From an uncultured Candidatus Saccharibacteria bacterium (GTDB lineage Bacteria; Patescibacteriota; Saccharimonadia; Saccharimonadales; CAYOYH01), in assembly GCA_964579475.1 (NCBI GenBank), contig CAZOFP010000004.1:904-64903 (forward strand): DNA of 64,000 nucleotides, read 5' to 3'. This document shows, one piece after another, positions 599 through 16,514 of the stretch. Position 1 is the stretch's first letter; the number at the start of each line of letters is the position of its first letter. The translations under genes were made by a program, and so were the position numbers. The notes below the pieces were generated by a model. That model searched no databases and was not told the DNA's origin. It saw nothing but the letters and a program-made list of their open reading frames with translations.

Positions 599-2027
599 GC
601 TTGGTGTCGGGCGAGTTTCCAGATCGTCGGGATAACATGCGGCTGACCGTTTGAGACAGGGTTTCGTTTTCTTCCTTTTGGTCGCGGATATAGTAGGCGA
701 GCGCTGCAACTAGACTGATTAGTGTAGCGACGATGATGACTAGTAGCCAAGGAATGGTACGAAAATCTTTGGTGACCGAAACAGAGAAATAATAAACGTC
801 CTCGCAGCCTTGGGCGTCGGTGATTGCTAGGCTGCCGTTGTACTGACCGATGTCTTTGTACACGTGGTGATAGGAAGTGTTGTTGTCGCGGTAAAGGGTA
901 ATGTTCTCGATGGTGGCGTCGCCCCAATCTAGAAGTATTTGATACTCGGGGTTGCCAGATTTCAAAATCATTTCCAGGTTGACACCATCGTTACGCCTCA
1001 GCCCCCAGAAACGAACGTTCTCCAGCTCCAGCAGTGGTCGACAGGTCGTGATATCGCCACTGAAGAAGACGAGCACCGGTTCGGAAAACTCTGTACAGGT
1101 GCCGTCGACACAGGCACGAGCGGTTAAGGAATTCTGCGTGTTGGTCATGTTGAAAATAAAGTTCCAGTCGCCTAGCGGGTTAGAGAACGCCGAGCCAACA
1201 AGCTTGCCGTCGGCGAAGAGTTCTATTTGAGTATTCGCCGGCCCGATACCACTAACGGTGACTTCTTTGGAGCTGGTTAGACTGCGGTTTTTGGGACTGG
1301 TGATTTGAGGTGTGGTCAGCTCGCTAGGATAGAGATTGCCTTGGTCGCCGGGGAAGCGCCGGGCAGTCCTAAAAATATAGTCGTCGGATTCTTTGCTGAG
1401 TTGCCCGTTTACCTCCGAGACTACAGAGTAGGTATGAGTACCTAATGCATACAGCGAGGTGTCGGCAATCACCCACCAGTTACCCAGTTCGTTAGCTTTG
1501 GACACTAGGGTGAAATTGTTGTTGATGTTCAGATTAACATTGGCGTTGGGGCAGGTGAAGCCACGGAACGTCAGGTAGTCGCCGATGATGACCGGGTCTT
1601 TGTCGTGGTAAACGGTTGGTGGCAGAAATACATCGAGTGCGTTGTCTTCATGGGCGTTTAGCGAGGTGCTAAACTCGGCAGTTGAGGAGATATTTTGGAA
1701 TCTGTCTTCCTGAAAGATCTGAAGTTTTTGCAGGCCGTAGCTCTGCGAGCCAATAAATTTCGAGAAGTAGCCAAAATTGTTGGCTACTACCGTCCCGATA
1801 GGGGTGTTGTTTTCAAAAATGGTTACAAAAGCACTAGGTGAGGCGCAGCCGCTTACCGTCAGGGTACCTTCAGGAACAGAAAGTTGTACTGGTTCACCTG
1901 GGGCTTCTGTTGGCACACCACTAGGAACGGTGGTGGTGTCGCCGGTTGCAAATACTAAGCTACTGAATACACTCAGTGACATAAGTACACCGACGATTAG
2001 AGTTAGCCTAATAAACAGATTTTTCAA
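579..2027 (-). CDS. Exported surface protein: signal peptide, three Ig-like (Big-type) repeats, PKD-like domain, C-terminal TM anchor
   Basis: N-terminal hydrophobic signal (LIVGVLMSLSVFSSLVFA). Repeated pattern vTVSG...G.W. PKD-like segment LLDWGDAT...YHHVYKDIGQYNGSLAITDAQGC. C-terminal TM IPWLLVIIVATLISLVAALAYY. TTG start with GGTGG upstream. Confidence 0.6.
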   Translation of the reverse strand: MKNLFIRLTLIVGVLMSLSVFSSLVFATGDTTTVPSGVPTEAPGEPVQLSVPEGTLTVSGCASPSAFVTIFENNTPIGTVVANNFGYFSKFIGSQSYGLQKLQIFQEDRFQNISSTAEFSTSLNAHEDNALDVFLPPTVYHDKDPVIIGDYLTFRGFTCPNANVNLNINNNFTLVSKANELGNWWVIADTSLYALGTHTYSVVSEVNGQLSKESDDYIFRTARRFPGDQGNLYPSELTTPQITSPKNRSLTSSKEVTVSGIGPANTQIELFADGKLVGSAFSNPLGDWNFIFNMTNTQNSLTARACVDGTCTEFSEPVLVFFSGDITTCRPLLELENVRFWGLRRNDGVNLEMILKSGNPEYQILLDWGDATIENITLYRDNNTSYHHVYKDIGQYNGSLAITDAQGCEDVYYFSVSVTKDFRTIPWLLVIIVATLISLVAALAYYIRDQKEENETLSQTVSRMLSRRSGNSPDTKPTPPEK

Positions 2028-2074
2028 GTTACCACCACTACTTATTTTTGTTTACGTATCCGCGTCAGTATGGG

Positions 2075-3004
2075 CTATTTGCCAGAAAGGGCTTTACCAG
2101 CTTTAGACAAACGTCCTCGGTATCTAACAGCACCGTACGCTAGCAGTATTACACCCAAAGTCACTGGAATAATCACCTTATAAGGGAAAACCGTAAACGA
2201 AGTGCTGTCGGTCAGGATTGTGCCATCTGCACCGTAGACAAGTGTTAGGTCGGCGGTGTATTTGCCGACAGTGAAGCCACTAGGTGCCCAGTCGTTGACT
2301 AGTTTTCTGGTTGAGGTTGGTAGGACATTCTTTTCTTCTAGGTCGATAGTGGCGACAACGTTACCGAAGAAGTTTTTGATTTCAATAGTGCCGCTTGGTT
2401 TGAAGTGAACGTTACCAGTGTTCGTGACTCGTGTTTCAAACGTCACAGGACCCTTCTCCCAGAACGAATCGGTGGTGAAGCTAGCGATTTCGGCACCTTC
2501 TACTAGGTCGCCAGATACGCTGGTTAGAATCAATGGTCCAATTTCTTGGCTGACTGCTGCGCCAGATCCGTCGATGTCTATCGGATCAGTCTGGACGATG
2601 ATTGAGCCAAGGTGGCTGCCTGGTTCTGCACCAGCTGGGAGGTTTATTGAGAACTCGAAAACTTGTGAACCACGGGCTGGAACTGTGACCTTCGTTGGGC
2701 TGACAGTAATCCAACTAGCCAGCGAGAACGATGTGCTGTCTTCGGTTAAGTTTACGCCACCGTCTTCACCCGCTGGTGTAAAGTTCTTTGGTGTGGCGTT
2801 AAGAGTTAGGTCGATATCTGTGCCGTTAACTATCTTGAAACTCTCTGTGACGATGTCTCCTGGATCGGCGCTAATCTCAAAGACCTGTGGACTCACACTT
2901 AGAGCCACTGTACTTGTATCTTGCTGTGCCAGTGCTAGACCTGCAAAAATCGCCATAGTTGAGACTAGGGCGCCCACCGCCAAAAGATGTAACTTGTATT
3001 TCAT
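2075..3004 (-). CDS. Membrane-tethered protein with two beta-sandwich-like domains (CscA / DUF916-DUF3324-like architecture), copy 1
   Basis: Signal peptide (AIFAGLALAQQ), then two segments with the pattern PG...f.v.N.g, then a C-terminal TM (IIPVTLGVILLAYGAV) and basic tail. SD GGAGGAG precedes the ATG. Paralogous in layout to 5653..6765. Confidence 0.55.
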   Translation of the reverse strand: MKYKLHLLAVGALVSTMAIFAGLALAQQDTSTVALSVSPQVFEISADPGDIVTESFKIVNGTDIDLTLNATPKNFTPAGEDGGVNLTEDSTSFSLASWITVSPTKVTVPARGSQVFEFSINLPAGAEPGSHLGSIIVQTDPIDIDGSGAAVSQEIGPLILTSVSGDLVEGAEIASFTTDSFWEKGPVTFETRVTNTGNVHFKPSGTIEIKNFFGNVVATIDLEEKNVLPTSTRKLVNDWAPSGFTVGKYTADLTLVYGADGTILTDSTSFTVFPYKVIIPVTLGVILLAYGAVRYRGRLSKAGKALSGK

Positions 3005-3087
3005 CTACTCCTCCAAAATTGATGTTGTAATAAAGTTTAATCCTTTGACCTCTAGTTCTCAAGTCTTTTAGCTGTGGTTTTTGGGAA

Positions 3088-3122
3088 AACAAAAACCCGG
3101 CTCGACCAAGAACCGGGTTTTG
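3088..3122 (-). terminator. Rho-independent terminator after the 351-aa paralog 1 (hairpin usable on both strands)
   Basis: AACCCGG (12-nt loop) CCGGGTT stem flanked by A-run and T-run. It sits 18 nt downstream of the stop at 3140. Confidence 0.6.
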
Positions 3123-3139
3123 AACAAAGAGCTAACTGT

Positions 3140-4195
3140 TTAGTAGGTTGCTACTATGGTGTAGATCATCGTTGTGCTGTATGTACCAGCAGGGGTATCA
3201 CTCTGGATACCAACTTGTTGACCGACACGTACTGTTTCAGAACCAGCGGTAGCTGCGGCGTTAGTCATCACTAGGTCATTTGAAGTAGTGAAACCAGCCC
3301 AGGTGTTAGCTGTGAACTGAGTAAGATCAGCATCTTCCGTGGTGTAGCCCCAAGCTTCGGTGCCAGCTGCTGGGAAGGAAGTCGGTGCAGCGTTGGTACC
3401 AGTGTGGTTGGCGATTACATCACTAGATTCATTAGTTAACTGACCAGTGTGTCTAAGGTAGACGTTGTAGCCGCCTGAAGCATTGGTTGTTACTGCTAAG
3501 TCATGAGCTGCAATTCCGTTGGCAGAAGTCGTAACTGCCGTGCCGAAATCGATGCCAGTTGCAGTTGAGAGGATAGAAGTAGTAGCGCTGTTTACGAGTT
3601 GACCAGAAGCTACTGCGTTAACTACGAAAAGAAGGGTTGGCTCAAGAGTCAAAGAAACAAGCGTTCCATCTTTGTAGGCGAAAGCGATGGTCGTAGTATC
3701 GACTTCGTTACCGCCAGTACAACCAGCGTCAGTGTATGTGTTGATTAACGCATAGTAAGTTTGATCGGTATCGCCGTTGGTTACAGCTCCCCAAATTACA
3801 TTACCGTTGGCTGCAGGTGTTTCACCGGTTACATTAGTAATTCTGAGCGTGCCGTTGGAAGAGTTGTCTACACTCCAGCTACCAGCCGTTATAAGAGTAG
3901 ACGAAACGAGCGTCGAGCTTGTTGTAGTGATGGCATTTGGTATTGCTCCTGCGCCATCTGCTTGATCGTTTAGGGCAACTTCAATACAACCTATCGTAGT
4001 ACCGGTAGTAAAGCTAGAAGCTCCAACCGTGTATGTTGACGTTGTGGAGGTTCGTGAATCTCCGAGTTCGAGTGATGCTGAGGTTAAGCTAGCTGCTGAA
4101 ACTGATGCTAGATTACCCAGTACCATCATTAATGTGGCAGCTGCGACTACTACTTGCAGCACGCGCTTACCAAGGAACGTGGTGGACCTAATCAT
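3140..4195 (-). CDS. Secreted 351-aa surface/fibre subunit candidate, paralog 1 (variable N-terminal half plus shared C-terminal module ending TIVATY)
   Basis: Signal peptide ending SVSA. T/S/A/G/N-rich beta-type composition with only two Cys. AAGGAG SD. Has its own promoter-like site and terminator. The C-terminal 166 aa are homologous to the C-terminus of the 2102-aa protein. Confidence 0.6.
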   Translation of the reverse strand: MIRSTTFLGKRVLQVVVAAATLMMVLGNLASVSAASLTSASLELGDSRTSTTSTYTVGASSFTTGTTIGCIEVALNDQADGAGAIPNAITTTSSTLVSSTLITAGSWSVDNSSNGTLRITNVTGETPAANGNVIWGAVTNGDTDQTYYALINTYTDAGCTGGNEVDTTTIAFAYKDGTLVSLTLEPTLLFVVNAVASGQLVNSATTSILSTATGIDFGTAVTTSANGIAAHDLAVTTNASGGYNVYLRHTGQLTNESSDVIANHTGTNAAPTSFPAAGTEAWGYTTEDADLTQFTANTWAGFTTSNDLVMTNAAATAGSETVRVGQQVGIQSDTPAGTYSTTMIYTIVATY

Positions 4196-4267
4196 AGGTG
4201 TTCTCCTTAATTGTTTTGTTGTTATTTATTTTGCTGTCTGCTGTTTGCAGACTTAAAGCGTAACTAC

Positions 4268-4296
4268 TTTATATCACGGTTATTTGCACCGCTCAA
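4268..4296 (-). promoter_or_regulatory. Promoter-like site TTGAGC-17 nt-TATAAA for paralog 1
   Basis: Reverse complement of 4291-4296 is TTGAGC and of 4268-4273 is TATAAA, with a 17-nt spacer. The identical hexamers and spacing recur upstream of paralog 2. Confidence 0.5.
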
Positions 4297-4380
4297 CACC
4301 CCTGTGGCTAGTTTGTGGACAATTAACACTACGAGATAATAATTATTAAAATCTGTAGAACTCAATAAATATTGCTAAAT

Positions 4381-4412
4381 AAACCAAAACCCCGGCTCAA
4401 TTGAGCCGGGGT
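4381..4412 (-). terminator. Rho-independent terminator after paralog 2
   Basis: Perfect palindrome CCCCGGCTCAA|TTGAGCCGGGG followed on the minus strand by TTTTGGTTT. Confidence 0.7.
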
Positions 4413-4447
4413 CTGCATTTTAGATTCTAACTTCTAGTATCTATCGT

Positions 4448-5503
4448 CTAATAGGTAGCTACCAGAGTGTAAATCATCGTGGTGCTGTACGTACCAGCAG
4501 GGGTGTCAGTAGCGATACCGACTTGTTGTCCGACACGTACGGTATCGGTGCCAGCTGTGGCTGCTGCGTTGGTCATCACTAGGTCATTTGAAGTAGTGAA
4601 ACCAGCCCAGGTGTTAGCTGTGAACTGAGTAAGATCAGCATCTTCCGTGGTGTAGCCCCAAGCTTCGGTGCCAGCTGCTGGGAAGGAAGTCGGTGCAGCG
4701 TTGGTACCAGTGTGGTTGGCGATTACATCACTAGATTCATTAGTTAACTGACCAGTGTGTCTAAGGTAGACGTTGTAGCCGCCTGAAGCATTGGTTGTTA
4801 CTGCTAAGTCATGAGCTGCAATTCCGTTGGCAGAAGTCGTAACTGCCGTGCCGAAATCGATGCCAGTTGCAGTTGAGAGGATAGAAGTAGTAGCGCTGTT
4901 TACGAGTTGACCAGAAGCTACTGCGTTAACTACGAAAGTTAGAGTAGGTTCGATTGTCAGAGAGACGAGGGTTCCGTCCTTGTAGGCAAAAGCCATAGTT
5001 ACGGTGTCGACTTCATTGCCGCCAGTACAAGATGCATCTGTGTAGGTAGTGAGTAGGGCGTAATATGTTTGGTCGGTGTTGCCGTTGGTTACTGCTCCCC
5101 AAACTACATTGCCGTTTGCTGCCGGTGTTTCACCGGTTGCGTTGGTAATACTAAGGGTTCCGTTCGTGCCGTTGGCTACAGTCCAGCTGCCGGTGGTGAT
5201 AAGCGTTGATGAATCTAGCGTTGAGCTAGTAGTAGTGATACCAGCTGGAATAGCTCCTGCGCCATCTGCTTGATCGTTAAGGGCGACTTCAATACAGCCT
5301 ATTGAAGTTCCGGTGGTGAAGCCGGAAGCTGTAGTCGTATAAGTTGATGTTGTGGAAGTACGTGAATCGCCAAGCTCTACAGATGCTGAGGTAAGTGTTG
5401 CTGCCGAAACAGATGCCACATTACCAAAAATCATCATTGCCGTAGCCACTAAAGCTACTGCTTGAATTACGCGTTTTCTTACCAACGCTAAAGACCTATT
5501 CAT
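4448..5503 (-). CDS. Secreted 351-aa surface/fibre subunit candidate, paralog 2
   Basis: Same length and layout as 3140..4195. Signal peptide ends SVSA. A central 122 aa are identical to paralog 1. C-terminus is TLVATY. AAGGAG SD. Confidence 0.6.
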   Translation of the reverse strand: MNRSLALVRKRVIQAVALVATAMMIFGNVASVSAATLTSASVELGDSRTSTTSTYTTTASGFTTGTSIGCIEVALNDQADGAGAIPAGITTTSSTLDSSTLITTGSWTVANGTNGTLSITNATGETPAANGNVVWGAVTNGNTDQTYYALLTTYTDASCTGGNEVDTVTMAFAYKDGTLVSLTIEPTLTFVVNAVASGQLVNSATTSILSTATGIDFGTAVTTSANGIAAHDLAVTTNASGGYNVYLRHTGQLTNESSDVIANHTGTNAAPTSFPAAGTEAWGYTTEDADLTQFTANTWAGFTTSNDLVMTNAAATAGTDTVRVGQQVGIATDTPAGTYSTTMIYTLVATY

Positions 5504-5587
5504 AGGCGTTCTCCTTTTTGTTTTTGTTTTGTTGTTTTTATTTTGCGGTGCCCACTGCTAGTCGAGAGAGGGCTAAAGCATAAGTAA

Positions 5588-5616
5588 TTTATACCATGTC
5601 GCAACTAACTGCTCAA
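5588..5616 (-). promoter_or_regulatory. Promoter-like site TTGAGC-17 nt-TATAAA for paralog 2
   Basis: Reverse complement of 5611-5616 is TTGAGC and of 5588-5593 is TATAAA, with a 17-nt spacer. Same geometry as 4268-4296. Confidence 0.5.
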
Positions 5617-5652
5617 TACCTCTGTGAGTTAGCTGTGGATAACTGGCTTGGT

Positions 5653-6765
5653 TTATCTTATGATAATTTTCCTTTTTCTTTGTCTTTGGGCGTGGTGTGG
5701 ACTTGGCGCGTGGTCAGGCTTTCTACTAGATGTGCCGCTAAGCAAATCGTCGATTTTACTTGAGTCCATGGAAAGTCGAGCCATGTCTTGAGGTCTGTTC
5801 TCGGATTCGTTGTGCTTTCTTTTGAGGATACGAGGGCCGATACGAATACCCTTGAAGCGCCAAAGTAAACGTCTGATGGGTTTTTTGAGTATGAAGGCGG
5901 CAACAAGCACCGATACAGCCATTAGACTTAGGAAAAATATCAGACTTACGAAGTTTGGTAAAAACACAATCGTTCCAGTGTCTAGAGAAGCGAACTGGGT
6001 TGGCGAACCATAGGACAGGTCAATCTCGACTCGATGTAGGCCAACTCGGCCACCAGTTGACCATCTGACATCGTAGCTTTTTGTAGTGTTTGGCAATATA
6101 AGTTGTGGTGGCACAGAAATACTGTCAACTAATCGATCGCTTCGGTCGTAAAGCTTGACTGTTGCAGTCGGCAGAATATGAGTGTTCCCGGTGTTGGCGA
6201 TATTAAAAGATAAGGTTTGATCTTCGCCAAAGACAAAGAAAGGAGTGTCTAGCTGCTCGATAGTAGCTTCCTCTTGAGCATCGCCAGCGACGTTAATAAA
6301 TGCTAGCGAAGTAAGTGTCGGTGTGACTATTGAACCAGAAGCTGACTGTTGTTGAGTTGAAGTAGTTGTGAAGGTGACCATAGCATAGTGTCCGCCAGGC
6401 CCAGCATTTTCCGGTACTAGAAACTGAACGTCAACTGACCGTTGCTCCCCAACGTCTAGCAAGAATTTTCTACCTTTGTCTATGAGCCAGGTTGATGCAT
6501 CAATGTCTTTACGCTTTTGTTGGTTAATGTCGGGGTCGTTTGGTATCAGAGACTGTGCACCGACTTCCACGCCGACGGGGGTTCCAGAGATGTTTTGAAT
6601 AAATATTGTCGCTGAGACTGTCGTGCCGGGTTCTGTGGCGAGCTCAACAATTGCTGGTCTAAGGGCGAGGCCGATTTCTTGTTCGGCTTCAGCCGCAAAA
6701 ACGAGCCGAGGGACACCAATGAATGTCAGTATTGCTAGTCCCACCAGTAAAGTTATTTTACGCAT
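5653..6765 (-). CDS. Membrane-tethered protein with two beta-sandwich-like domains (CscA / DUF916-like architecture), copy 2, with long basic cytoplasmic tail
   Basis: Signal peptide (LVFAAEA). Two PG...v.N.sG-type segments. TM FVSLIFFLSLMAVSVLVAAFIL. K/R-rich tail. The ATG at 6765-6763 overlaps the TGA of the upstream giant gene (TGATG), implying translational coupling. Confidence 0.55.
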   Translation of the reverse strand: MRKITLLVGLAILTFIGVPRLVFAAEAEQEIGLALRPAIVELATEPGTTVSATIFIQNISGTPVGVEVGAQSLIPNDPDINQQKRKDIDASTWLIDKGRKFLLDVGEQRSVDVQFLVPENAGPGGHYAMVTFTTTSTQQQSASGSIVTPTLTSLAFINVAGDAQEEATIEQLDTPFFVFGEDQTLSFNIANTGNTHILPTATVKLYDRSDRLVDSISVPPQLILPNTTKSYDVRWSTGGRVGLHRVEIDLSYGSPTQFASLDTGTIVFLPNFVSLIFFLSLMAVSVLVAAFILKKPIRRLLWRFKGIRIGPRILKRKHNESENRPQDMARLSMDSSKIDDLLSGTSSRKPDHAPSPHHAQRQRKRKIIIR

Positions 6766-9700
6766 CAATAGGTAGCCGTTATGGTGAAGATTATTATAGT
6801 TTGGTAATCGCCAGCTTCTTGGCTTGAGCTGGTCGTAACTCTATGGGTAATGATGAAGTTTTCGTTGGCAACAGAAGTTCCAGAAATAGTTGCGGTGTGG
6901 TCGGCCACGATATCACCAGGTGCAACTAGAGAGAACGGAGCGTAGCAGGGAGGGTTGCCACCGCCAGCACAAGGAGCGCTGTTAAATAGATTTGAGCCTT
7001 GAATGCTGCTGTCATTTGAAGTGTAGCCATACCCTGTGTCACCACCTTGCCAGGTGTCTGGCGAGACGTAGGTTCCACCGTTAAACATCTGTATAGTGTC
7101 CAATCCACCACTCGTCAAAAGTCCGGAAGCATAGGCTCGGACGGTGTAACCGTTGTAAGCATTTGTACTTGTCGTAAGGGTGGTTGATTTGGTTGAAGTA
7201 AAACTATTGGTACTGTTTAGATTGTCGAACTGGACGGTCATTGGTGAGCTAATGAAACTAAGAGTTGGCGCGATCAGCTGGCCGTCTGAACTCTGGACGC
7301 TTTGGTTGCCGGCACTGTCGGTGGCACGGACATTGAAATAATATGGCTGTGAAGTATTTAGAGTTAGCAAGCTATCGGTAATACTGGTAGCCAACACCAC
7401 GTCCGTCCAAGTCTTGATGTTAGTGGTGCTCGGGATGGTACCGATTGAGTATTCATACTTGCTGACTCCCGATCCTGCGTCTGTTATATTCCAGTTTGCG
7501 GACAGCGTATTTAGAGAACCATCGTTGTAGTCGACATCGACGCCCGTGGTAGTGCCGTCATAGACAGTTCCAGCTGGTGACGTAGTATCAACACCAAAGT
7601 CCCTACTGGTCTCGGCGTTACCACCAAAACTAATCCAGGCTGAATAAGCACCTAGGGCGTCCTTGACCCTGACTTGCCAGTGGTAATCTTGCCCAGTGGT
7701 TAAACCAGAAATTGTTACGTCGGCTGGTACGGCAGTGCCGGAATAATTAACGTTGGAACCACATGAAGTTTCGGTATTGGTAAACGCTGTACCGAGTTGC
7801 TGGACTTCGACGCAGAGACTAAGCACGTCACTAGAGTTTCCGTCGCTAACACTAGCAGTGAATTTGACGGAAGTTTCGTTGGTGAAAGCGTTAACAGCAA
7901 TACTGGTATCGTCTGTCTTCTTTTGGTCTAGTGAAGTAGGGCTATTTGGGTTTTGCGGCGCTTCAGTAGAGATGGTTGTAACTTTTGGATAACGGGTGTA
8001 CTGGATTACGCTGCCGCTTGTGCTAACGGCGCGGAAACAATAAGTTGTTACGGCGGGTGCGCCGTTGTTCTCAACAACCCAGTCCCACTCAGCTCGTTGA
8101 TTCTTAGGGATTACGTTTGGGTTGGTAGCTGAATTGTTTGATTCTTCGTAGGTCATGAGAACATTAACTCCGCCATCGAGCAGTGAGCTGGGTAGAGTCG
8201 AGCCATCAGTGGTTGGTCCACCTTGGTTATTACCACGCCAAATTATGCCACTGCCGATGCCGCCAACGTCAGTCCACGTACCAGCAGCTGCGCAGTCAGA
8301 TGCGGCAGAATACTGTAATTTTAGGTCGAAATTGCCTACAGGTTGGTCATAGACTGTGTTTTGAGCAGCCATCCTCAGGCGTATGACATCATTTGTCGCG
8401 ACATTCAGTATGTCTTCATTTTCGTTTCCAAGCGGCGTTGTTGGAGTGACGCTATTTTGTCCGGCATACCAGCGGAAACCGTCTTGGTCGAGCACTAGGG
8501 CATTTTCTAGAGGGCCAGATTCAATGGCTAGCCAAGCATTGGTGTCTGCAGCATGAGTGTCACAGGTGTCTGTGGTATCAATTTCGCAGAAATGAACCTT
8601 AGCGCCTGTAAGTGTTACATCTTTAGCTTCGTCAATTTCAACATCTTGGCCACCGTTGTCGGTTTGTGATGCCGAAATTAAGATTGGGATAGCCGAGAAA
8701 GGCTGGGCAAAGGTGACAGAGGCCCAAGAATCAGAATCGGTATCAATAGACCAGCTACCATTGTCGAACTCACCCAAGAAAGGTTCGTTGCCAGGCTCGA
8801 CGGCTACCCAGCCGACTGTTTCGTTGCCATGAGCACTGTCGCAAGCATCGTTATTGCCTAGCAGCTGGTCGCAGATTCCAGCATTGAAATTGGTGGTAGT
8901 GGTACTGTTGATGACGACTTCTATTGGGAACTCTGTGCTATTGACCGTGTTGACATTAGAGAAAACTAGAGGCGTTGTACCGTATGTACCAGCGTAGTTG
9001 ATTGTGTAATTGGAGCTGTCATCTGCGCCACTGGCCGTGAAGGTACCAGCCTCGATACCGGTCGTTGTCGCGGCAACTGCTGCGTCAATAACCATGTAAC
9101 CGACGGTTTCCGAGATGTGAGTATCGCAGCCGTTGGCCGTTGAACCCTGTGAATCGCAGACACGCATCTGGGCGCTGGTAGTGGTAACGTTTCTAGACTC
9201 AAACACCAATGCCGGCGTGCCAGCACGAGTGTTGGTCGTACCAACAACGACGGGTGTTGTATAGGTGCTAGCAAAAGTGATTGTTGTCCAACCGCCATCG
9301 ACAGCCGAAGCAAAAGAACCTGTTTCACCGAGCGTAGAGAAGACAACTTTGGTGGTCGAAACGCTAAGCTCAGGAAGAACCTGGTAGCCGTCGAGTGCAG
9401 CGGCAGCGGTTGTGTCATAGAGTCTGAAACAATAAGTTTCACCGCCGATGGAATCTTCGGTCATTTCAATGGCATATTCAAGCTCGGTGTAGTAGCTAAC
9501 AGGCAAAGGACCGATAGAGCCAGTAGTGTCAGCGCTTTTGCGACCTTCACCGCTCAGGAAGCTGTAGCTTTCGGTGTTTGCCAGTAGGCCACCAGTCGTT
9601 AGTGTGCCGTCCGGGTTGATATTAGAGCTGTTATACATGGCGACAGCGTCGGTTGCGCTGCTGCCGACACCAGTCCAAGTAGTGACGCTGCTACAACTAG

Positions 9701-12700
9701 CAAAACCTGATTTACTGGCAAATTGAAGCTGGTAGGTGCGTGCAGCATCTTCGGCACCATCACCTTGATTGGCCACAGAAATACGCAGTCTAGTTGGTGT
9801 TAGCTTGTTGACGCTTGTCGGGTCGGTATCTTCCGTCGCCAGCCACCCGCCAGTGGTATTCAGTGCAGTGGTGTCGTCACGCCAGCGGTAGTGGAGCTGT
9901 TGCGAATCAGGAAAACCAATACTGAAGCCACTAAAATCGACAACTTGTAGCCAGGCAGTAACGGGCTGGCCAGAATAAGCTCGCCACCAGAGAAGATTAG
10001 TCGACGAAGTCAACCTTGCCCCCCAGGCTCCAGTACGGGAATAGGCTTGTCCAGTTCCACCGGATGTAGTTGAAATTATAGGTAGGCGGTCACCTTGTGT
10101 GAAGCGTACTGATGTTGAAATATTATCGTATATCTCAGCGCCACCAGCACTCGTTACAGTTTCATTGAGTTCTTGGTAACCACTTGCAGCGCCAGTATCG
10201 CCTCTAACATGGAAGTAGTATCCGGCAGAAAGCGTCGGATTTTCGATTGCGTAGATTTCAAAATCACGTCCAGGTGTTATTAGTGCACCTTCGCCACCGA
10301 CAGCCACACTGGTTTCGCTCGCGTTTTGTGTGACGCCATCTCCAAGCGTAAAAACTTGACCGAGCGCTCCATCACCGAGCCCGTCATCTCTGGTAAATCC
10401 TGAGCCCCAAACAAATGTATCTGCCCGCACTACACTGGTAATTATAGCGCTGTCATAATGGCTGACGTTATTTATTCCCGAACCACTGCTCGTGCCAGTT
10501 ACGTTGGCTGATTGAACGGTCCAAGTACTTCCCCAATCAATGACGTAAGTCGTTAGCGTAGCTGCACCAGGTACACGGGTTTCCGATCCATAGCGATCGT
10601 ATCGTATTTGATTAGTGCCTGATTTGCTGATTTTGACACCAGCCGTTACGGAGTATTCGTTCGAACCACTACTCGTGCTGGAAATACCACCACCATTACG
10701 GCCGCCAAAAGGTACGGTGTTTGCGGTGTGGTTTGCCGCCAGCGTGGCGTAGGTTGTTTGCTGGGTATTAGCCGTACCAGCCGCCATGGTGTGTTCGACA
10801 ACTTCTGAGAGTGTAAAGCCGTCGGTGGTGCAATTAGCGGTACACTCGACTATTGATACAGAACCAACCCAATCATTTGTGGTAGCGCCACGCGAAAGCT
10901 GGATTTGATTTGCGGCAGTGACAGTAGTGAAATTGCTGTGTGGATCACCCGTAATTCGTGCCTGATCTTGGTCGACGCCACGGCTAGCAGTTGCCGAAGA
11001 AGGACCTGCAATAACTGTGTAATAATCGCTGGCTAAATCGTTATTTAAGGTTAGAGTATAGGTCGCTGCGGTGAAAGTTGCGGCTTCGATTTCATAAGTC
11101 GTAACTCTGATAATATCGAGCGCGTCACCGGCTATTTGCCAACTCCTTGTCTCCTGCCAAACGACATCGTTACCGTCGTTCATTTTGAGTGGGCCTAGTA
11201 AGTAAAATTCTGGCGAAATATCTGGCGCATCGAAACGATAGCCAAGAGTTATTTTCTGACCTGCTTTCAAACTGACATCCCAAGTAAGCGTTCTGACGCC
11301 ACCCGCAACGGCGACTCGGCTGTAAACTCGACCGAACTCGGCGGCGGAGATTTTGAAGCTAGCAGGAACTTCTTCGATGATAGTTCCACTGAAATCTTGG
11401 GAGGCGACAACGTCTAGTGTTATTGGGTAGTCAACCACGGGGTAAATACGGGTTGGGCCACTTCTGGTGACGTCGAAAAGAGGTGTGCTCTCCACGAAAA
11501 CCTTGTCAATGATTTGGTACTGGCCATTTGAGGTGGTGGCCGTAAGATCAAGCGTGTATTCACCGGGTCCGGCGAATTGGTAGCTTGCTTCAAAGTCAGG
11601 TGTAATTTGGGTACCGTATTGTTCACAGCTGTCATTTCGAGTTATCGAAGAACTGTCTGTCGAAAGGGTTGATGTCCCACTGGGTCCACTTATCGTCAGC
11701 ACCAGACCTGCCTTACAAACTGTGGCACCCAGCTCATTTAGGACAGTCATCATAATCCGGCCTGTTTCACCAGGCGAGTAGATTGTTTTGTCGGTGTTTA
11801 GCGCAAGTACACCCCACAAGAAATCTTGGCTGATTCGCTGCTGGGCTCCGTCTTCGGTGGTGACTTCCATTTTTAGTGTGTAAATGCCAGGGTTGGCGCT
11901 GCGGGGCATCTTTATTGGCACGTCCCACTTGTCGGTGTTAGAAATGTCGACATCTTTCCACTCAGCTTCAACGTCATCGCTAGTAACGACTACACCATCG
12001 CTGTCGATTATCACCGATTTTGCGTTAGCGCCCGGTGCACTTTGGTTACTCCTGACGGCAGACGTAACACTACTGACAATACCCTGTACGACGCCGTCGT
12101 TAGGATCCTTAGCACTGATTTCGAAGACAATTTCTTCGTCGGCCGCTAGCAGTGGAATTTTATCTTCAATAATTTCGCCGGTACCGTCGAGGGCTTTGAC
12201 CGCAATTTCTTTGTCCAGACCGATTTCGTAAACAATTGCCATGCTATCTACGAGAGCGGTATAGTTTTCTGCGCCGTCGACGAGTTCGAGTCTGAAGGCA
12301 AACTGGCTTAAACTTTCAGCAACACCATCTGGGATTAGGATTGATATGTGCGGCGATGAAGTTGAAAGCTCTTGCTGGGTGATTAGGTGCAGTGTAGACC
12401 AGGTATCGCCTTGGTCGCCTGATATCTCGACCTTAAATACTGGATTATCGACCTGGGTTTCTTCGCTACCAAAGACGTTCGGCAAAGTTGAGTCGACGCG
12501 CCCATCGACTTTCAGGGGTTCAAACGAAGTTTCACTGAAAACGACTTCAGGTGCAGACACGGTCTCTTCGACCACTGGCTCCTCGGAAGCGGGTACAGCG
12601 TCTTGATCAGTTTGGGGTTCGGTTGGCACATTTGGTTCTTCTGCGGTTTCAGCGACCTCTGCTACTGACAGGGAAATATTTAATGCAGTTGCTGTCCTGA

Positions 12701-13073
12701 CGTCGTTTGTATCTTTGTAGCCAATACAGGTTAGTACGCCGTCGGCGTCTACTAGCTTTGCGGCATTTTTTTCGGTTATTTGATCTCGTGAGCCGTCGAA
12801 GGCGACGTCAGGTTGCGATTGGGCGAGCTCTGGGTTTTGCCAGCCGGAATTTGCCGAACACTGAGTTGCGGGGAAGCTCATAGTTGAGCCAACATCGCTA
12901 ATGTTTGCCCTAACGATTACTGTAGTGACCGTTATTAAAATAAACAGCAGACCACCACCATAAATGAGTTTTTCACGGCCAGAAAGAGGATCAAGAATTG
13001 TTGCAATCCCACCTCTTCTTTTTCCTAGCGCCCTCGGGTTATACCCATAGGAGCGTCGAAATATATTCCTCAC
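6765..13073 (-). CDS. Giant (2102 aa) N-terminally TM-anchored multidomain surface protein; its C-terminal 168 aa are homologous to the C-terminal module of the 351-aa paralogs
   Basis: Uninterrupted 6.3-kb ORF with a GTG start and GAGG upstream. N-terminal basic segment plus TM (LIYGGGLLFILITVTTVIV). Acidic P/E/T linker. Beta-rich domains include three tandem ~95-aa Cys-pair repeats and FN3/Ig-like segments. Ends AGDYQTIIIFTITATY. Confidence 0.7.
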   Translation of the reverse strand: MRNIFRRSYGYNPRALGKRRGGIATILDPLSGREKLIYGGGLLFILITVTTVIVRANISDVGSTMSFPATQCSANSGWQNPELAQSQPDVAFDGSRDQITEKNAAKLVDADGVLTCIGYKDTNDVRTATALNISLSVAEVAETAEEPNVPTEPQTDQDAVPASEEPVVEETVSAPEVVFSETSFEPLKVDGRVDSTLPNVFGSEETQVDNPVFKVEISGDQGDTWSTLHLITQQELSTSSPHISILIPDGVAESLSQFAFRLELVDGAENYTALVDSMAIVYEIGLDKEIAVKALDGTGEIIEDKIPLLAADEEIVFEISAKDPNDGVVQGIVSSVTSAVRSNQSAPGANAKSVIIDSDGVVVTSDDVEAEWKDVDISNTDKWDVPIKMPRSANPGIYTLKMEVTTEDGAQQRISQDFLWGVLALNTDKTIYSPGETGRIMMTVLNELGATVCKAGLVLTISGPSGTSTLSTDSSSITRNDSCEQYGTQITPDFEASYQFAGPGEYTLDLTATTSNGQYQIIDKVFVESTPLFDVTRSGPTRIYPVVDYPITLDVVASQDFSGTIIEEVPASFKISAAEFGRVYSRVAVAGGVRTLTWDVSLKAGQKITLGYRFDAPDISPEFYLLGPLKMNDGNDVVWQETRSWQIAGDALDIIRVTTYEIEAATFTAATYTLTLNNDLASDYYTVIAGPSSATASRGVDQDQARITGDPHSNFTTVTAANQIQLSRGATTNDWVGSVSIVECTANCTTDGFTLSEVVEHTMAAGTANTQQTTYATLAANHTANTVPFGGRNGGGISSTSSGSNEYSVTAGVKISKSGTNQIRYDRYGSETRVPGAATLTTYVIDWGSTWTVQSANVTGTSSGSGINNVSHYDSAIITSVVRADTFVWGSGFTRDDGLGDGALGQVFTLGDGVTQNASETSVAVGGEGALITPGRDFEIYAIENPTLSAGYYFHVRGDTGAASGYQELNETVTSAGGAEIYDNISTSVRFTQGDRLPIISTTSGGTGQAYSRTGAWGARLTSSTNLLWWRAYSGQPVTAWLQVVDFSGFSIGFPDSQQLHYRWRDDTTALNTTGGWLATEDTDPTSVNKLTPTRLRISVANQGDGAEDAARTYQLQFASKSGFASCSSVTTWTGVGSSATDAVAMYNSSNINPDGTLTTGGLLANTESYSFLSGEGRKSADTTGSIGPLPVSYYTELEYAIEMTEDSIGGETYCFRLYDTTAAAALDGYQVLPELSVSTTKVVFSTLGETGSFASAVDGGWTTITFASTYTTPVVVGTTNTRAGTPALVFESRNVTTTSAQMRVCDSQGSTANGCDTHISETVGYMVIDAAVAATTTGIEAGTFTASGADDSSNYTINYAGTYGTTPLVFSNVNTVNSTEFPIEVVINSTTTTNFNAGICDQLLGNNDACDSAHGNETVGWVAVEPGNEPFLGEFDNGSWSIDTDSDSWASVTFAQPFSAIPILISASQTDNGGQDVEIDEAKDVTLTGAKVHFCEIDTTDTCDTHAADTNAWLAIESGPLENALVLDQDGFRWYAGQNSVTPTTPLGNENEDILNVATNDVIRLRMAAQNTVYDQPVGNFDLKLQYSAASDCAAAGTWTDVGGIGSGIIWRGNNQGGPTTDGSTLPSSLLDGGVNVLMTYEESNNSATNPNVIPKNQRAEWDWVVENNGAPAVTTYCFRAVSTSGSVIQYTRYPKVTTISTEAPQNPNSPTSLDQKKTDDTSIAVNAFTNETSVKFTASVSDGNSSDVLSLCVEVQQLGTAFTNTETSCGSNVNYSGTAVPADVTISGLTTGQDYHWQVRVKDALGAYSAWISFGGNAETSRDFGVDTTSPAGTVYDGTTTGVDVDYNDGSLNTLSANWNITDAGSGVSKYEYSIGTIPSTTNIKTWTDVVLATSITDSLLTLNTSQPYYFNVRATDSAGNQSVQSSDGQLIAPTLSFISSPMTVQFDNLNSTNSFTSTKSTTLTTSTNAYNGYTVRAYASGLLTSGGLDTIQMFNGGTYVSPDTWQGGDTGYGYTSNDSSIQGSNLFNSAPCAGGGNPPCYAPFSLVAPGDIVADHTATISGTSVANENFIITHRVTTSSSQEAGDYQTIIIFTITATY

Positions 13074-13512: not shown

Positions 13513-14832
13513 CTATTTACGCTCAATGAGGTCTATAACCAAAGCCGCTGTCCAAGAGAAGTTCTTGCCACCAGTGCCAGAACCACCTATTGGCGAGAAA
13601 TACTCGAAAAAACCATGTTCCGTAACTAGCTCTAAGCTTTTTTCACGGATATGCCCGGCTTCTTTTTCGTAGCCGTACTGTTTTAGCCCGTCGATTATTA
13701 ACCAGTTAGTGTTTATCCAGGTCGGACCTTGCCAGTAACGGTGGTGGTTAAAATAGCTAGAATCCAGTGGCACGCTAGGGACAGGAAATTTCGGCCAGTA
13801 TTTGAGCTCGTTTTTCATTATTCCAACCAATTTCTTAGCTCTTTTTTTGGAAATTACACCAGAATATAGCGGCATCAGCGAACCGATATATTCTTCATGA
13901 ATCCATTCTCTGGTGACGAAGTTCCGAGCGAAATAAGTTTGTTTTTCTTCGCACCACAGTTGTTCTAGGGCGCTATCGGCCTTCTCGAACGATTCACGGA
14001 GGTCTTTTGGTATGGTTTCGCCAATTTCTGCGGCAATCTCTTCCAGGATGTGGTTGTTGCGAATCAGTATTGAGTTGAAAAAGACATCGTCGATGGCAAA
14101 GTGCGCCCGTCTGATTATTTCATTAGAATCGTATTCCTTCCTACGAAGGCGCCTCTGAGCGTTAAACAGCAGTAGTGAAGTTTTAGTCGATATCCTCTCG
14201 GCTGCTGGTACAAGCTTAATGTCTTGGCGAAACAGATTAAAAACCTTGTCCAAATTAAGCCAGTCGACAATCTTAATCCAAACAGGCGTGGCGTTATGGT
14301 GCATTTCACTCATCCACGGTGGTGTGTTGTCTAGACCTGTCTCCCAGGGGTGGACAAGCACTACCAGGCCTTCGCCGCGTGGGTCACGTTCGCGGTAGAG
14401 CCAGCCGTGGTAGCGTAGCAGTGCTGCGTAGACTTCCTCATAGAAACGCTCGCGCTCATCGGCTTTCATTTTCTCGCCAATCCTTAGTACGGCTTCGGCA
14501 ATAACTGGCGGTTGGGTAATGCCAGAAGTTTGAATGCCTGGCGGGGCTACCGGCGATACGTGGGATTGCCAGATGTTAGCTCCAGTTAGTGGACTGGATT
14601 GTTCGTCAAATATCATGTGCGGAATCATGCCGTTTGACCATTGTCCGCGGATGAGCGAAATTATCTCTCTTTTGGCTCTTTTGGTGTCGTAGTGGGAGAT
14701 GCCGATAGCTGAAAAACAGCTGTCCCATAGCCATTGGTGTGGGTACAGACCTTCAGCAGGCCGCGTCCAATTACCGAGGTCGTTGTCCTTTAGTACTGTT
14801 TTTGCCTTCTCAAGCAAAAGCGTTTTGCGCAT
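13513..14832 (-). CDS. (alpha/alpha)6-barrel glycoside hydrolase, GH63-like (glucosylglycerate/mannosylglycerate hydrolase or trehalase-like)
   Basis: Motifs LYPHQWLWDSCFSAIG, GITQPPV, HPWETGLDNTP and YWQGPTWINTNW are typical of the GH63/MGH-type family. I prefer the ATG at 14832 (MRKTLLLEK) over the track start at 14871. Confidence 0.6.
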   Translation of the reverse strand: MRKTLLLEKAKTVLKDNDLGNWTRPAEGLYPHQWLWDSCFSAIGISHYDTKRAKREIISLIRGQWSNGMIPHMIFDEQSSPLTGANIWQSHVSPVAPPGIQTSGITQPPVIAEAVLRIGEKMKADERERFYEEVYAALLRYHGWLYRERDPRGEGLVVLVHPWETGLDNTPPWMSEMHHNATPVWIKIVDWLNLDKVFNLFRQDIKLVPAAERISTKTSLLLFNAQRRLRRKEYDSNEIIRRAHFAIDDVFFNSILIRNNHILEEIAAEIGETIPKDLRESFEKADSALEQLWCEEKQTYFARNFVTREWIHEEYIGSLMPLYSGVISKKRAKKLVGIMKNELKYWPKFPVPSVPLDSSYFNHHRYWQGPTWINTNWLIIDGLKQYGYEKEAGHIREKSLELVTEHGFFEYFSPIGGSGTGGKNFSWTAALVIDLIERK

Positions 14833-14872
14833 AGAAAGATAATACAACAGATGAACGCGGGAGGCTAACACC

Positions 14873-14901
14873 TTGACGAATGAGTGCTAAGCATGTATAA
14901 T
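14873..14901 (+). promoter_or_regulatory. Consensus sigma70-type promoter TTGACG-17 nt-TATAAT
   Basis: TTGACG at 14873-14878 and TATAAT at 14896-14901, with exact 17-nt spacing. It faces an ORF-poor, GC-richer 640-nt unit. Confidence 0.7.
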
Positions 14902-14953
14902 ATGCGGTAGTTGGGAATAATTCCAGCGTAGTCGCGAAGAAGGAGAAGTACGG

Positions 14954-15253
14954 ATGCGTCGCTTGTTTTCGAGAGGCACCCACTACGTCGATTGCTCAAA
15001 GCATTTGAAGTGGCAGGGACTCATAGCGAATATCAAGCGGGTAGGTAGGTGCATGCACAGTTCATGCATTAAGGAAGGCATCTTTAGGTCAGGATACTAT
15101 TCTGACCAATGTTTCTATGGCTGTTTCTGTCGGGAACGACGGCAACGCGCCAGGAAGCTGCGACGGAAACAAAGGTTGAATGAACGGTTTGGGATACCGT
15201 TCGAGCAATCAGATTTCCAGATGAGCGAAGGAGAGGGAACCGATGACGTGTAG
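14954..15253 (+). CDS. Hypothetical 99-aa basic, Cys-rich small protein (status uncertain: the region may instead be a structured RNA)
   Basis: AAGGAG SD 8 nt upstream of the ATG. Arg/Lys-rich stretch RERRQRARKLRRKQR. At least six Cys. No recognisable family. Confidence 0.35.
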   Translation: MRRLFSRGTHYVDCSKHLKWQGLIANIKRVGRCMHSSCIKEGIFRSGYYSDQCFYGCFCRERRQRARKLRRKQRLNERFGIPFEQSDFQMSEGEGTDDV

Positions 15254-15428
15254 TCGTGATCAGGACGAAAAGTTCGTGCGTGCATGCAAGTACGTAGCAG
15301 AACACCCGTTCGAAATCACACCCAAGTTCATCGAGGACAACTTCCCTGAGGAAGAATCGTTCATCGTAGACGAGATACCCTGGGTGTGGTGGGTTTGGTT
15401 CTTCAGAACCGCCACCATCCCCGAGTAG
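15243..15428 (+). CDS. Hypothetical 61-aa acidic protein with Trp-rich hydrophobic C-terminus (IPWVWWVWFF); overlaps the preceding ORF by 11 nt
   Basis: AAGGAG SD 9 nt upstream of the ATG. SD context GCGAAGGAGAGG resembles that of the upstream ORF (GCGAAGAAGGAGAAG). No recognisable family. Confidence 0.3.
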   Translation: MTCSRDQDEKFVRACKYVAEHPFEITPKFIEDNFPEEESFIVDEIPWVWWVWFFRTATIPE

Positions 15429-15497
15429 ATCGTCGACCGGGAGGGGTGTCCAAGAGTATGGCTGTGAAAGCACCAAACCCTTGCGACACCCTTTCCG

Positions 15498-15546
15498 AAA
15501 AAACCTTAGTCAAGTAAACAAAAGTTTGTTGCCTGAGGTTTTTTTT
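15498..15546. terminator. Bidirectional rho-independent terminator shared by the orphan plus-strand unit and yajQ
   Basis: AAAAAACCT...CAA..AAAC aaaa GTTT.TTG...AGGTTTTTTTT: an interrupted hairpin flanked by an A-run and a T-run. It overlaps the yajQ stop codon. Confidence 0.7.
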
Positions 15547-16045
15547 ATTTAAAATTTGTAAACTCAACAGGGAAGTCGAACTTGGCTTCTTTGATAGCGG
15601 TCATGGCGTCTTGTAATTGATCTTTTTTAGGGCTGGAAACTCGGATTTCCTCACCCTGAATTTGGGTTTTCACTTTTGGTAGTTTGTCACGAAGTAGTTT
15701 GGTAATTTTCTTGGCTCGTTCTTTGTCTAGGCCTTTTTTGAATGTAACTATCCAGGTCATCTTTAGATTGGAGGTTTCTGGTTCGGCCGAGGTGTCGAAA
15801 ACCTTCTGGCTGACGCTGCGTTGGGCGGCCTTTTTACGGAGCATGTCCATAATTGCGTCTAAGTGGTACTGAGTGTCGCCGGTTATCTTCAAAGAGTCCT
15901 TTTCACCAGAGGCGAAATCTACTCCAGCGCTCGTGCCTTTAAAATCATAACGAGTGAGTATTTCGCGGCGTGCTTGATCGACGACGTTGTTCATCTCAGC
16001 TACGTCGTAGTCGCTGACTGCGTCAAATGAATAACTCTTTGCCAT
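15545..16045 (-). CDS. yajQ: YajQ-family nucleotide-binding protein (UPF0234)
   Basis: 166 aa. N-terminus SFDAVSDYDVAEMNNVVDQARREILTRYDFKG and overall layout are typical of YajQ. TGgTAAAAT extended -10 lies 6 nt upstream of the ATG. Confidence 0.85.
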   Translation of the reverse strand: MAKSYSFDAVSDYDVAEMNNVVDQARREILTRYDFKGTSAGVDFASGEKDSLKITGDTQYHLDAIMDMLRKKAAQRSVSQKVFDTSAEPETSNLKMTWIVTFKKGLDKERAKKITKLLRDKLPKVKTQIQGEEIRVSSPKKDQLQDAMTAIKEAKFDFPVEFTNFK

Positions 16046-16263: not shown

Positions 16264-16334
16264 CTTTAGTGTCGGAAATAACTCCAGGAAAAAACAGATA
16301 GAATTATCAAGTTATTCGATCAAGATACAGAGCA

Positions 16335-16366
16335 GTATAGTTATATAATTAATTATATAACTATAC
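16335..16366. repeat. Perfect 32-bp AT-rich palindrome GTATAGTTATATAATT|AATTATATAACTATAC (copy 1 of core TTATATAATTAATTATATAA)
   Basis: Read directly. Core at 16341-16360. Contains TATAAT on both strands. Confidence 0.9.
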
Positions 16367-16409
16367 GGTGTGACCACTGTTACGTGGATAGATGTATTAG
16401 GTAGTAAGG

Positions 16410-16429
16410 TTATATAATTAATCATATAA
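16410..16429. repeat. Copy 2 of the palindromic core, with one mismatch (TTATATAATTAATCATATAA)
   Basis: Read directly. Its centre lies exactly 69 bp from the centre of copy 1. Confidence 0.85.
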
Positions 16430-16514
16430 CTAAGAACAAAGATGCATTTATGCATAGCTGACTGCGGACGGTTTGTAGCTGAGAGAGGGCGCTTGAGGTA
16501 TAATTTCGTCAAGT

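Follow-up and report, generated by a model that had tools for sequence, protein, structure and literature searches.

The described systems closest to the locus analysed here include toxin-first type II toxin-antitoxin (TA) pairs (HigBA, MqsRA, HicAB), in which two small overlapping genes with their own promoter and a patchy distribution encode a basic and then an acidic product; the OLE, GOLLD, ROOL and HEARO RNAs, several hundred nucleotides (nt) long, with very strong predicted structure and bounded by a promoter and a terminator; dual-function or structured coding RNAs, in which a short coding sequence (CDS) lies in a structure-selected RNA with terminal hairpins (SgrS/SgrT, RNAIII/hld, SR1/SR1P and the hok-type mRNAs); and integron attC cassettes, each of which is closed at its end by an imperfect hairpin whose base is conserved and whose interior varies. 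At the protein level they include arginine-rich-motif RNA-binding proteins (the lambda and P22 N proteins, HIV Rev and HIV Tat, the last with a Cys-rich region followed by a basic region) and the WhiB-like (Wbl) Fe-S proteins of Actinobacteria and actinophages, which number ~100 amino acids (aa) and carry a basic C-terminal segment after a Cys cluster. The locus lies in a 64,000-nt stretch of contig CAZOFP010000004.1 from an uncultured Candidatus Saccharibacteria bacterium (the whole stretch is hereafter called the window). Saccharibacteria have tiny genomes and live on other bacteria, and Actinobacteria are the known hosts of their cultivated members. The element in question is a cassette of ~640 nt on the plus strand (14873-15546), in which an initial annotation had seen either a pair of small proteins or a large structured RNA. 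It is a self-contained unit comprising a conserved promoter, a leader hairpin, a Shine-Dalgarno (SD) sequence, the open reading frame (ORF) ORF1, a chain of 3' hairpins and a bidirectional terminator, and it is outside the known TA, defence, phage and RNA families. The cassette is probably a lineage-specific accessory unit that sits in opposite orientation in the yajQ-glycoside hydrolase (GH) gene pair of one narrow Saccharibacteria clade and consists of a structured mRNA encoding a Cys/His-rich protein.

ORF1 (14954-15253, plus strand) encodes 99 aa with a pI of 9.8 and six Cys residues. Its relatives were sought using a word-indexed search of 5.8 billion protein clusters, which returned one sequence (P0002), and a full HMMER profile search of 1.84 billion representative proteins, which returned three (P0002, P0004, P0005); the family has four members among ~15 billion proteins. 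In the alignment the four members are 31-57% identical, and H10, C14, C33, H35, C38, C53, C57 and C59 are invariant in all of them, with the shared motifs GRCxHxxC and QCF[YH]GCxC and, in ORF1, the spacing C-x18-C-x-H-x2-C-x14-C-x3-C-x-C. P0005 has a 5-residue in-frame deletion between C38 and C53. The DNA homologues available for comparison represent three distinct lineages: the first is the window (identical to L001 and, over the length of the cassette, to L002 and L003), the second L004/L005 and the third L006/L007/L008. For ORF1 of the window and L004 the dN/dS ratio is 0.22 at a dS of 1.36. Frame by frame, pN/pS is 0.43 in the ORF1 frame versus 0.87 and 0.90 in the other two frames. This comparison of synonymous and non-synonymous change had been proposed in the initial annotation and, with the frame intact, it points to selection at the protein level. 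Because the Cys/His positions are invariant, the indel is in frame, dN/dS is low, pN/pS is frame-specific, and the promoter and SD are conserved, we conclude from these sequence comparisons that ORF1 is a genuine protein-coding gene of a tiny orphan family and is translated in this frame into a protein of ~100 aa.

The predicted protein has a Cys/His-rich N-terminal domain, then a helix rich in Arg and Lys (about residues 60-79) and, last, an acidic tail, and these segments carry charges of +7, +9 and -6 in the window and +6, +14 and -8 in P0005; across the family the basic helix has a net charge of +9 to +14 and the acidic tail one of -6 to -8. The helix, RERRQRARKLRRKQR, extends over ~17-20 residues dominated by Arg and Lys. 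The eight Cys/His positions shared by the four members constitute a conserved ligand set of the type found in small metal-binding proteins, and judging by its composition the scaffold is probably metal-binding; the protein matches no described zinc-finger or Fe-S family and no PDB sequence. As in Tat, the arginine-rich helix follows a Cys-rich, putatively metal-binding segment, and as for the arginine-rich-motif proteins in general the transcript is filled with hairpins, but ORF1 has no detectable homology to these proteins and no recurring hairpin resembling boxB or TAR was identified in the cassettes. The Wbl proteins are of similar length and also place a Cys cluster before a basic C-terminal segment; ORF1, however, does not belong to them, as it has no match to PF02467 even at E = 1, lacks a GVWGG-like turn, and spaces its Cys/His residues differently from the Wbl motif C-xn-C-x2-C-x5-C. 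Searches with the ORF1 alignment gave no match in the genome collection and only the window's own sequence in the metagenome collection. No relative was found in phages (tblastn) or viral contigs, there was no DNA match in the phage or plasmid collections, and no paralogue is present elsewhere in the window or in a comparison set of 80 other Saccharibacteria loci. A literature search for small cysteine-rich proteins of Saccharibacteria returned nothing relevant. A 130-aa antisense ORF covering ORF1 and the downstream ORF2 was also noted (15084-15476, minus strand); it has no family match, its codon score is 0.08, which 24% of spurious ORFs match or exceed, and it is most likely a by-product of the CDS on the opposite strand.

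The folding significance of the RNA was determined segment by segment as a z score of the native energy against dinucleotide shuffles, with six 300-nt segments from YajQ, PheS, GH and PheT as controls. The whole plus-strand transcript folds at -250.6 kcal/mol (z = -8.7) and the opposite strand at -204.5 kcal/mol. The 3' untranslated region (UTR) in the window has a z of -8.7 and the region after ORF1 in L006 one of -8.0, and ORF1 itself has z values of -3.3 (window), -6.4 (L004) and -4.6 (L006), with controls between -1.0 and +1.5. A second type of shuffle, in which codons were swapped among positions encoding the same amino acid so that protein and codon usage stayed fixed, gave z values for ORF1 of -3.0, -6.65 and -4.2 in the three lineages and of -1.15 to +1.25 for five control segments. 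Since these synonymous-codon shuffles still leave the native sequence far more stable, the RNA structure of ORF1 is not a by-product of the peptide and goes beyond what the protein imposes. Selection appears to favour dense secondary structure in the mRNA, in the coding region and the UTRs alike, and this strong selection for RNA folding inside a rapidly diverging CDS is the unusual feature of the cassette. The consensus fold of the window and L004 was more stable than its column shuffles (z = -3.1, 0/200). Four units, including a second unit of L004 that encodes an unrelated protein (see below), all have a folding density of about -0.38 to -0.39 kcal/nt, and 65-72% of their bases are paired.

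The four hairpins listed in the initial annotation are all present and form part of the minimum-free-energy fold. The one within ORF1 (GAACGGU-7 nt-ACCGUUC, 15182-15202, plus strand) is in register in L004 and L006: 87.5% of its cells pair and three of its eight pairs have changed on both sides, compared with 28-67% and 0-1 such pairs in slid controls. A long hairpin domain at 15369-15434 (plus strand) is closed by GACGA/UCGUC, and in L006 the same closing stem surrounds a wholly different interior of 123 nt. It is followed by a 3' UTR hairpin with the base CGGGAGG/CCUUUCCG and a variable interior (15438-15497, plus strand), which is not a terminator, as there is no U-tract after it. Four distinct copies of this hairpin were found (one in the window, one in L006 and two in L004), with a conserved base sequence and unrelated interiors. 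Above the CCGGGAGG base the pairs switch completely among the forms GGGUGUC/GACACCC, GGGG/CCCC and GAAUAC/GUAUUC; from the window (first form) to the second unit of L004 (third form), every one of the 4-5 pairs next to the base is compensated. Neither the rest of the window nor ~0.94 Mb of further Saccharibacteria sequence contains another copy of the CCGGGAGG hairpin motif. An extra CCGGGAGG (GCGGGAGG in the window) lies just 5' of the cassette promoter, where the divergent GH gene has its leader region, at 14857-14864 of the window and at 333-340 of L004; its candidacy as a boundary repeat 5' of the first L004 unit was dismissed, L006 having GCGCGAGG at this place, and it is probably incidental.

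The unit is transcribed from a sigma-70-type promoter, TTGACG-17-TATAAT (14873-14901, plus strand), which matches the consensus at 11 of 12 positions and is the sole match between 14000 and 16500; transcription probably starts near 14908. At this level the match alone does not exceed chance (three sites with at least 11/12 in the window versus 1.5 expected), and we rely instead on the conserved position of the promoter relative to ORF1 in the homologous loci, where the sequences are TTGACA-17-TATAGT (L004) and TTGACA-18-TATAAT (L006). The leader begins with a predicted hairpin, GUUGGGA-AUAA-UUCCAGC (14910-14927, plus strand), which is identical in L004 and has the form GUUGGUGGA-AAU-UCUACCGAU at the same place in L006, with a changed 3' arm and preserved pairing; no other copy of the leader was found in the window or in the 80 other loci. 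The SD of ORF1 (AAGGAG, 14940-14945, plus strand) is unpaired in the predicted fold, 8 nt 5' of the ATG at 14954, and purine-rich SD-like sequences occupy the equivalent positions in L004 and L006. The unit ends in an intrinsic terminator (15498-15546, both strands) formed by a hairpin at 15498-15544 with an interrupted stem of 20 bp and flanks of A6 and U8. Because both an A-run and a U-run flank this hairpin, directly next to which the convergent yajQ gene has its stop codon (15545-15547, minus strand), the terminator is bidirectional by sequence and is shared by the two genes, in agreement with the initial annotation, and it is near-identical in L006. A simple terminator scan did not list the 15498-15544 hairpin, and its resemblance to an Rfam model of a terminator-type sRNA (E = 1.2, 23 bits against a threshold of 48 bits) is not meaningful. 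The description of the segment as visibly more G+C-rich and compositionally odd proved weak: the GC content of 0.49 compares with a window mean of 0.463 (sd 0.027), which corresponds to the 83rd percentile only, and the neighbouring 5' part of the GH gene is richer (0.53-0.55).

These folding results bear on whether the RNA rather than the protein is the main product, i.e., whether the cassette specifies a dual-function or protein-binding structured RNA, for example a partner of its own encoded protein, the translation of ORF1 then being just one part of what it does. Synonymous-site selection for structure in three lineages, the uniform folding density of the four units (~-0.39 kcal/nt, the second unit of L004 included), conserved stem bases around variable interiors and an arginine-rich helix in the encoded protein would all fit. 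Against this, no common loop motif was found, the ORF1 helices are only partly in register with L006, and ordinary mRNA stabilisation or translation control could account for the structure. Scans with Rfam 15 identified no known RNA family either, be it in the whole window at the gathering score, in the region at E <= 10 (which gave only the terminator-like match) or in L004 and L006 at E <= 1; no tRNA or tmRNA was found. The dual-function and structured coding RNAs share with the cassette a short CDS in a structure-selected RNA with terminal hairpins, but ORF1 is longer and spans much of the RNA, its product is hydrophilic and not a membrane toxin, and no trans target or antisense partner is known. 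We regard an RNA-centred function as unlikely. The RNA alternative of the initial annotation stands in part, in that the structure is exceptional, exceeds what the protein needs and includes some compensatory changes, and fails where it supposes a pure non-coding RNA (ncRNA).

Downstream of ORF1 and overlapping it by 11 nt lies ORF2 (15243-15428, plus strand), a candidate acidic protein of 61 aa (pI 4.5, four Trp). The arrangement is as the initial annotation had described it, with a basic, Cys-rich and an acidic ORF of 99 and 61 aa, each preceded by an AAGGAG sequence. The statement that no ORF here can be assigned to a family also held, since Pfam, NCBIfam, PHROGs, PADLOC and PDB sequences gave no match to either ORF (Pfam, NCBIfam and PADLOC were checked at E <= 1, homologues included). 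The SD of ORF2 (15228-15233, plus strand) lies within the ORF1 CDS, 9 nt 5' of the ATG at 15243, and is paired in the predicted fold; it is kept in L004 (AGAGGAG), but the same stretch encodes the conserved C-terminus of ORF1. Several observations speak for translation. The overlapping arrangement recurs in L004 (63 aa, 14-nt overlap) and beside P0002 (64 aa, 14-nt overlap), the N-terminal 34 residues share PFxITxxFIxxxF with L004 and include an in-frame indel of one codon, and the codon scores of 0.18 (window) and 0.17 (L004) are in the range of true genes and are reached by 4-7% of 68 spurious ORFs. Speaking against it, pN/pS is 0.79 in the ORF2 frame versus 0.94 and 1.11 in the alternative frames, L004 does not conserve the C-terminal half with its IPWVWWVWFF ending, and L006 has just an unrelated 32-aa acidic ORF inside its long hairpin. 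L006, L007 and L008 all carry ORF1 (as P0005) without an ORF2 homologue, the C-terminal extension of P0005 shows no detectable relation to ORF2, family searches found only the copies in the window and L004, and the AlphaFold model of ORF2 has a pLDDT of 57. Whether ORF2 is translated into a functional protein is thus close to an even question, with a slight lean towards yes. Of the protein pair originally proposed, ORF1 stands as a conserved coding gene, and ORF2 is left with near-neutral substitution and no copy in L006. The suggestion of a membrane-active peptide finds no support, as IPWVWWVWFF is unconserved in L004, is too short to span a membrane, and is encoded (its 'WVWWVWFF' tail) by the G/U-rich 5' arm of the 15369-15434 hairpin.

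The same observations decide how far the cassette can be read as a type II TA-like pair, in which the basic ORF1 product would be a toxin or DNA-binding component neutralised by the acidic ORF2 product, the two being coupled through the 11-nt overlap. The resemblance extends to two small overlapping ORFs of opposite charge behind their own promoter, to a patchy, accessory distribution, to the recurrence of the arrangement in L004 and next to P0002, and to the gene-like codon usage of ORF2. Yet no TA or defence model in Pfam, NCBIfam or PADLOC matches either ORF or its homologues, conservation of the second ORF is poor (pN/pS ~0.8) and the family search placed it in the window and L004 only, and in L006, L007 and L008 the putative toxin is inherited without its antitoxin. 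Moreover, the ORF1 product is Cys/His-rich with an arginine-rich helix, a combination not seen in known toxins. The TA likeness noted in the initial annotation is unsupported, and a TA function improbable.

The cassette is located between two minus-strand genes, encoding an MGH1-like glycoside hydrolase (13513-14832) and YajQ (15545-16045), which are followed by pheS and pheT on the plus strand, and the gene order GH(-), ORF1(+), yajQ(-), pheST(+) is common to all three lineages. Between these genomes the YajQ, PheS and GH proteins are 86-96% identical, whereas ORF1 is 58% identical between the window and L004 and 24-30% identical between either and L006; its dN is ~10 times that of the neighbouring genes. 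The cassettes of L004 and L006 cannot be aligned by blastn, although their flanks are 79-84% identical. In L009, the closest GTDB representative (YajQ 86% identical), yajQ and GH are separated by ~220 nt and there is no cassette. Among the 80 other Saccharibacteria loci the two genes are mostly adjacent and co-directional with gaps of ~7-150 nt, and neither a relative of ORF1 nor any similarly small Cys-rich ORF is encoded in them. Since L009 lacks the cassette and the two genes are adjacent in most of the 80 loci, we consider it a derived antisense insertion into a conserved yajQ-GH pair. No recombinase, phage or plasmid genes were found within ~15 kb of the cassette, the neighbours being the GH gene, YajQ, PheS/PheT, surface proteins, L25 and transporters.

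In L004 a second unit follows directly after the ORF1/ORF2 unit (1061-1862). It has its own promoter (TTGACA-N17-TATAAT), a leader of ~170 nt folding at -54 kcal/mol and a 3' hairpin built on the CCGGGAGG base, and an AGCAT...ATGCT palindrome is present in the promoter spacer of both L004 units. Its product is a 167-aa acidic orphan protein with nine Cys, which has no match in Pfam, PHROGs, PADLOC, NCBIfam or PDB sequences and no detectable relation to ORF1. In the more distant Saccharibacteria locus L052 the yajQ-GH junction holds a different insertion (6488-7222) with a 244-aa ORF on the opposite strand, and extra genes occur at the junction in several other loci too; the junction may be a recurrent insertion site.

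The tandem arrangement in L004 raises the possibility of a hairpin-bounded, integron-like mobile cassette, for which the CCGGGAGG hairpin would be the recombination site and L004 a two-cassette array. The two L004 units share the base of their terminal hairpin, differ in hairpin interior and in gene, and have similar promoters, the cassette is present in some close relatives and missing from another, and the hairpin motif is restricted to these cassettes. Such mobility is nevertheless very unlikely: unlike integron cassettes the units carry their own promoters, every occurrence is at one chromosomal slot with no sign of movement, there is no integrase, recombinase or phage gene within ~15 kb of the window cassette and none in L006, and a regular-expression search of the window, L004 and L006 cassettes on either strand found no attC boxes (R'', RYYYAAC; R', GTTRRRY).

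A pure large structured ncRNA akin to OLE, GOLLD or ROOL, whose ORFs would be fortuitous, would agree with the length of ~640 nt, the z of -8.7, the favoured plus strand (-250 vs -204 kcal/mol) and the many hairpins, but purifying selection acts on an ORF that occupies almost half of the cassette transcript, its Cys/His pattern is invariant and its indel keeps the frame, and no covariance-model family matches even at E = 10; the conservation pattern of ORF1 effectively refutes this explanation, to which we assign a very low probability. Equally improbable is a remnant in decay, or a long intergenic spacer whose ORFs are spurious, since the atypical codon usage, orphan status and fast protein divergence of ORF1 are outweighed by its dN/dS of 0.22, its invariant Cys/His scaffold and a promoter, SD and terminator conserved across genomes at dS above 1.

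This leaves as the best explanation the lineage-specific accessory unit with a structured mRNA and a Cys/His-rich protein, and several points weigh against it. The independent DNA homologues number three, which makes covariation statistics weak, and the consensus z values of the pairs that include L006 are -1.6 and -0.5; because these pairs fail to clearly beat the shuffles, not all ORF1 helices appear to be in register across the deepest split. There is no common hairpin-loop motif across the units as a candidate protein-binding site. ORF1 has no sequence or structural relative in the family and PDB searches, its codon usage is atypical for the host genome, and its AlphaFold model, built from the 4-sequence alignment, is poor (pLDDT 53), with the basic helix (residues 60-78) as the sole moderately confident part. 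Metal and nucleic-acid binding are deduced from composition alone.

If the preferred explanation is correct, the eight Cys/His residues would bind metal, as two Zn sites or an Fe-S cluster, and the Arg-rich helix, by analogy with the arginine-rich-motif proteins, would contact nucleic acid, most plausibly RNA. The acidic tail, possibly together with the acidic ORF2 product, may moderate this binding. The hairpin in the leader may stabilise the mRNA, and the 5' terminal hairpin and the stacked 3' hairpins together may keep exonucleases off the transcript and limit its translation. Translation of ORF2, if this is a real gene, would be coupled to that of ORF1, and the pairing of the ORF2 SD in the predicted fold would fit such coupling. 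The rapid divergence of the protein, together with the presence of the cassette in some relatives, its absence from others and its very narrow distribution, suggests that it serves in genetic conflict or host interaction and not in housekeeping.

Two further features of the window were recorded. The AT-rich sequence AGTATAGTTATATAATTAATTATATAACTA, a perfect palindrome of 30 nt, occurs twice (16334-16363 and 16403-16432, with 90% identity and 69 nt apart) in the low-GC, 470-nt yajQ-pheS spacer upstream of pheS; the copies look like operators, and inverted-repeat matches link L004 and L006 at the equivalent place. Rfam detected no T-box leader in the window, this spacer included. A run of co-directional minus-strand genes with no or weak Pfam matches (579-13073) is probably a surface-protein cluster; it comprises a 2102-aa ORF (6765-13073) with weak MG2, Ig-like and H-type lectin matches, ORFs of 351, 351 and 371 aa without match, and a 482-aa ORF with a bacterial Ig domain.

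To our knowledge, the lineage-specific small genes of Saccharibacteria are almost wholly uncharacterised and are often dismissed as annotation noise. Here, one such orphan proves to be a real gene on which selection acts and which entered a conserved gene pair recently. It is subject to overlapping constraints: its protein diverges fast, and in three diverged lineages the mRNA is held in a tight fold through its synonymous sites. More speculatively, and in our estimation doubtful, the cassette could be a self-contained RNA-protein module, in which the folded transcript, with the conserved stem bases CCGGGAGG/CCUUUCCGG and GACGA/UCGUC around hypervariable interiors, would be a functional RNA bound or regulated by the encoded arginine-rich, putatively metal-binding protein. 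If this were true, the hairpin-bounded units, two of them in tandem in L004 with unrelated Cys-rich proteins, would represent an undescribed class of fast-evolving accessory elements of episymbiotic Saccharibacteria, possibly in conflict with phages or hosts. Should the RNA structure or the conserved hairpin function beyond stability, the cassette would be a new RNA-protein element in bacteria of the Candidate Phyla Radiation (CPR); otherwise, it would be a well-documented orphan small-protein operon.

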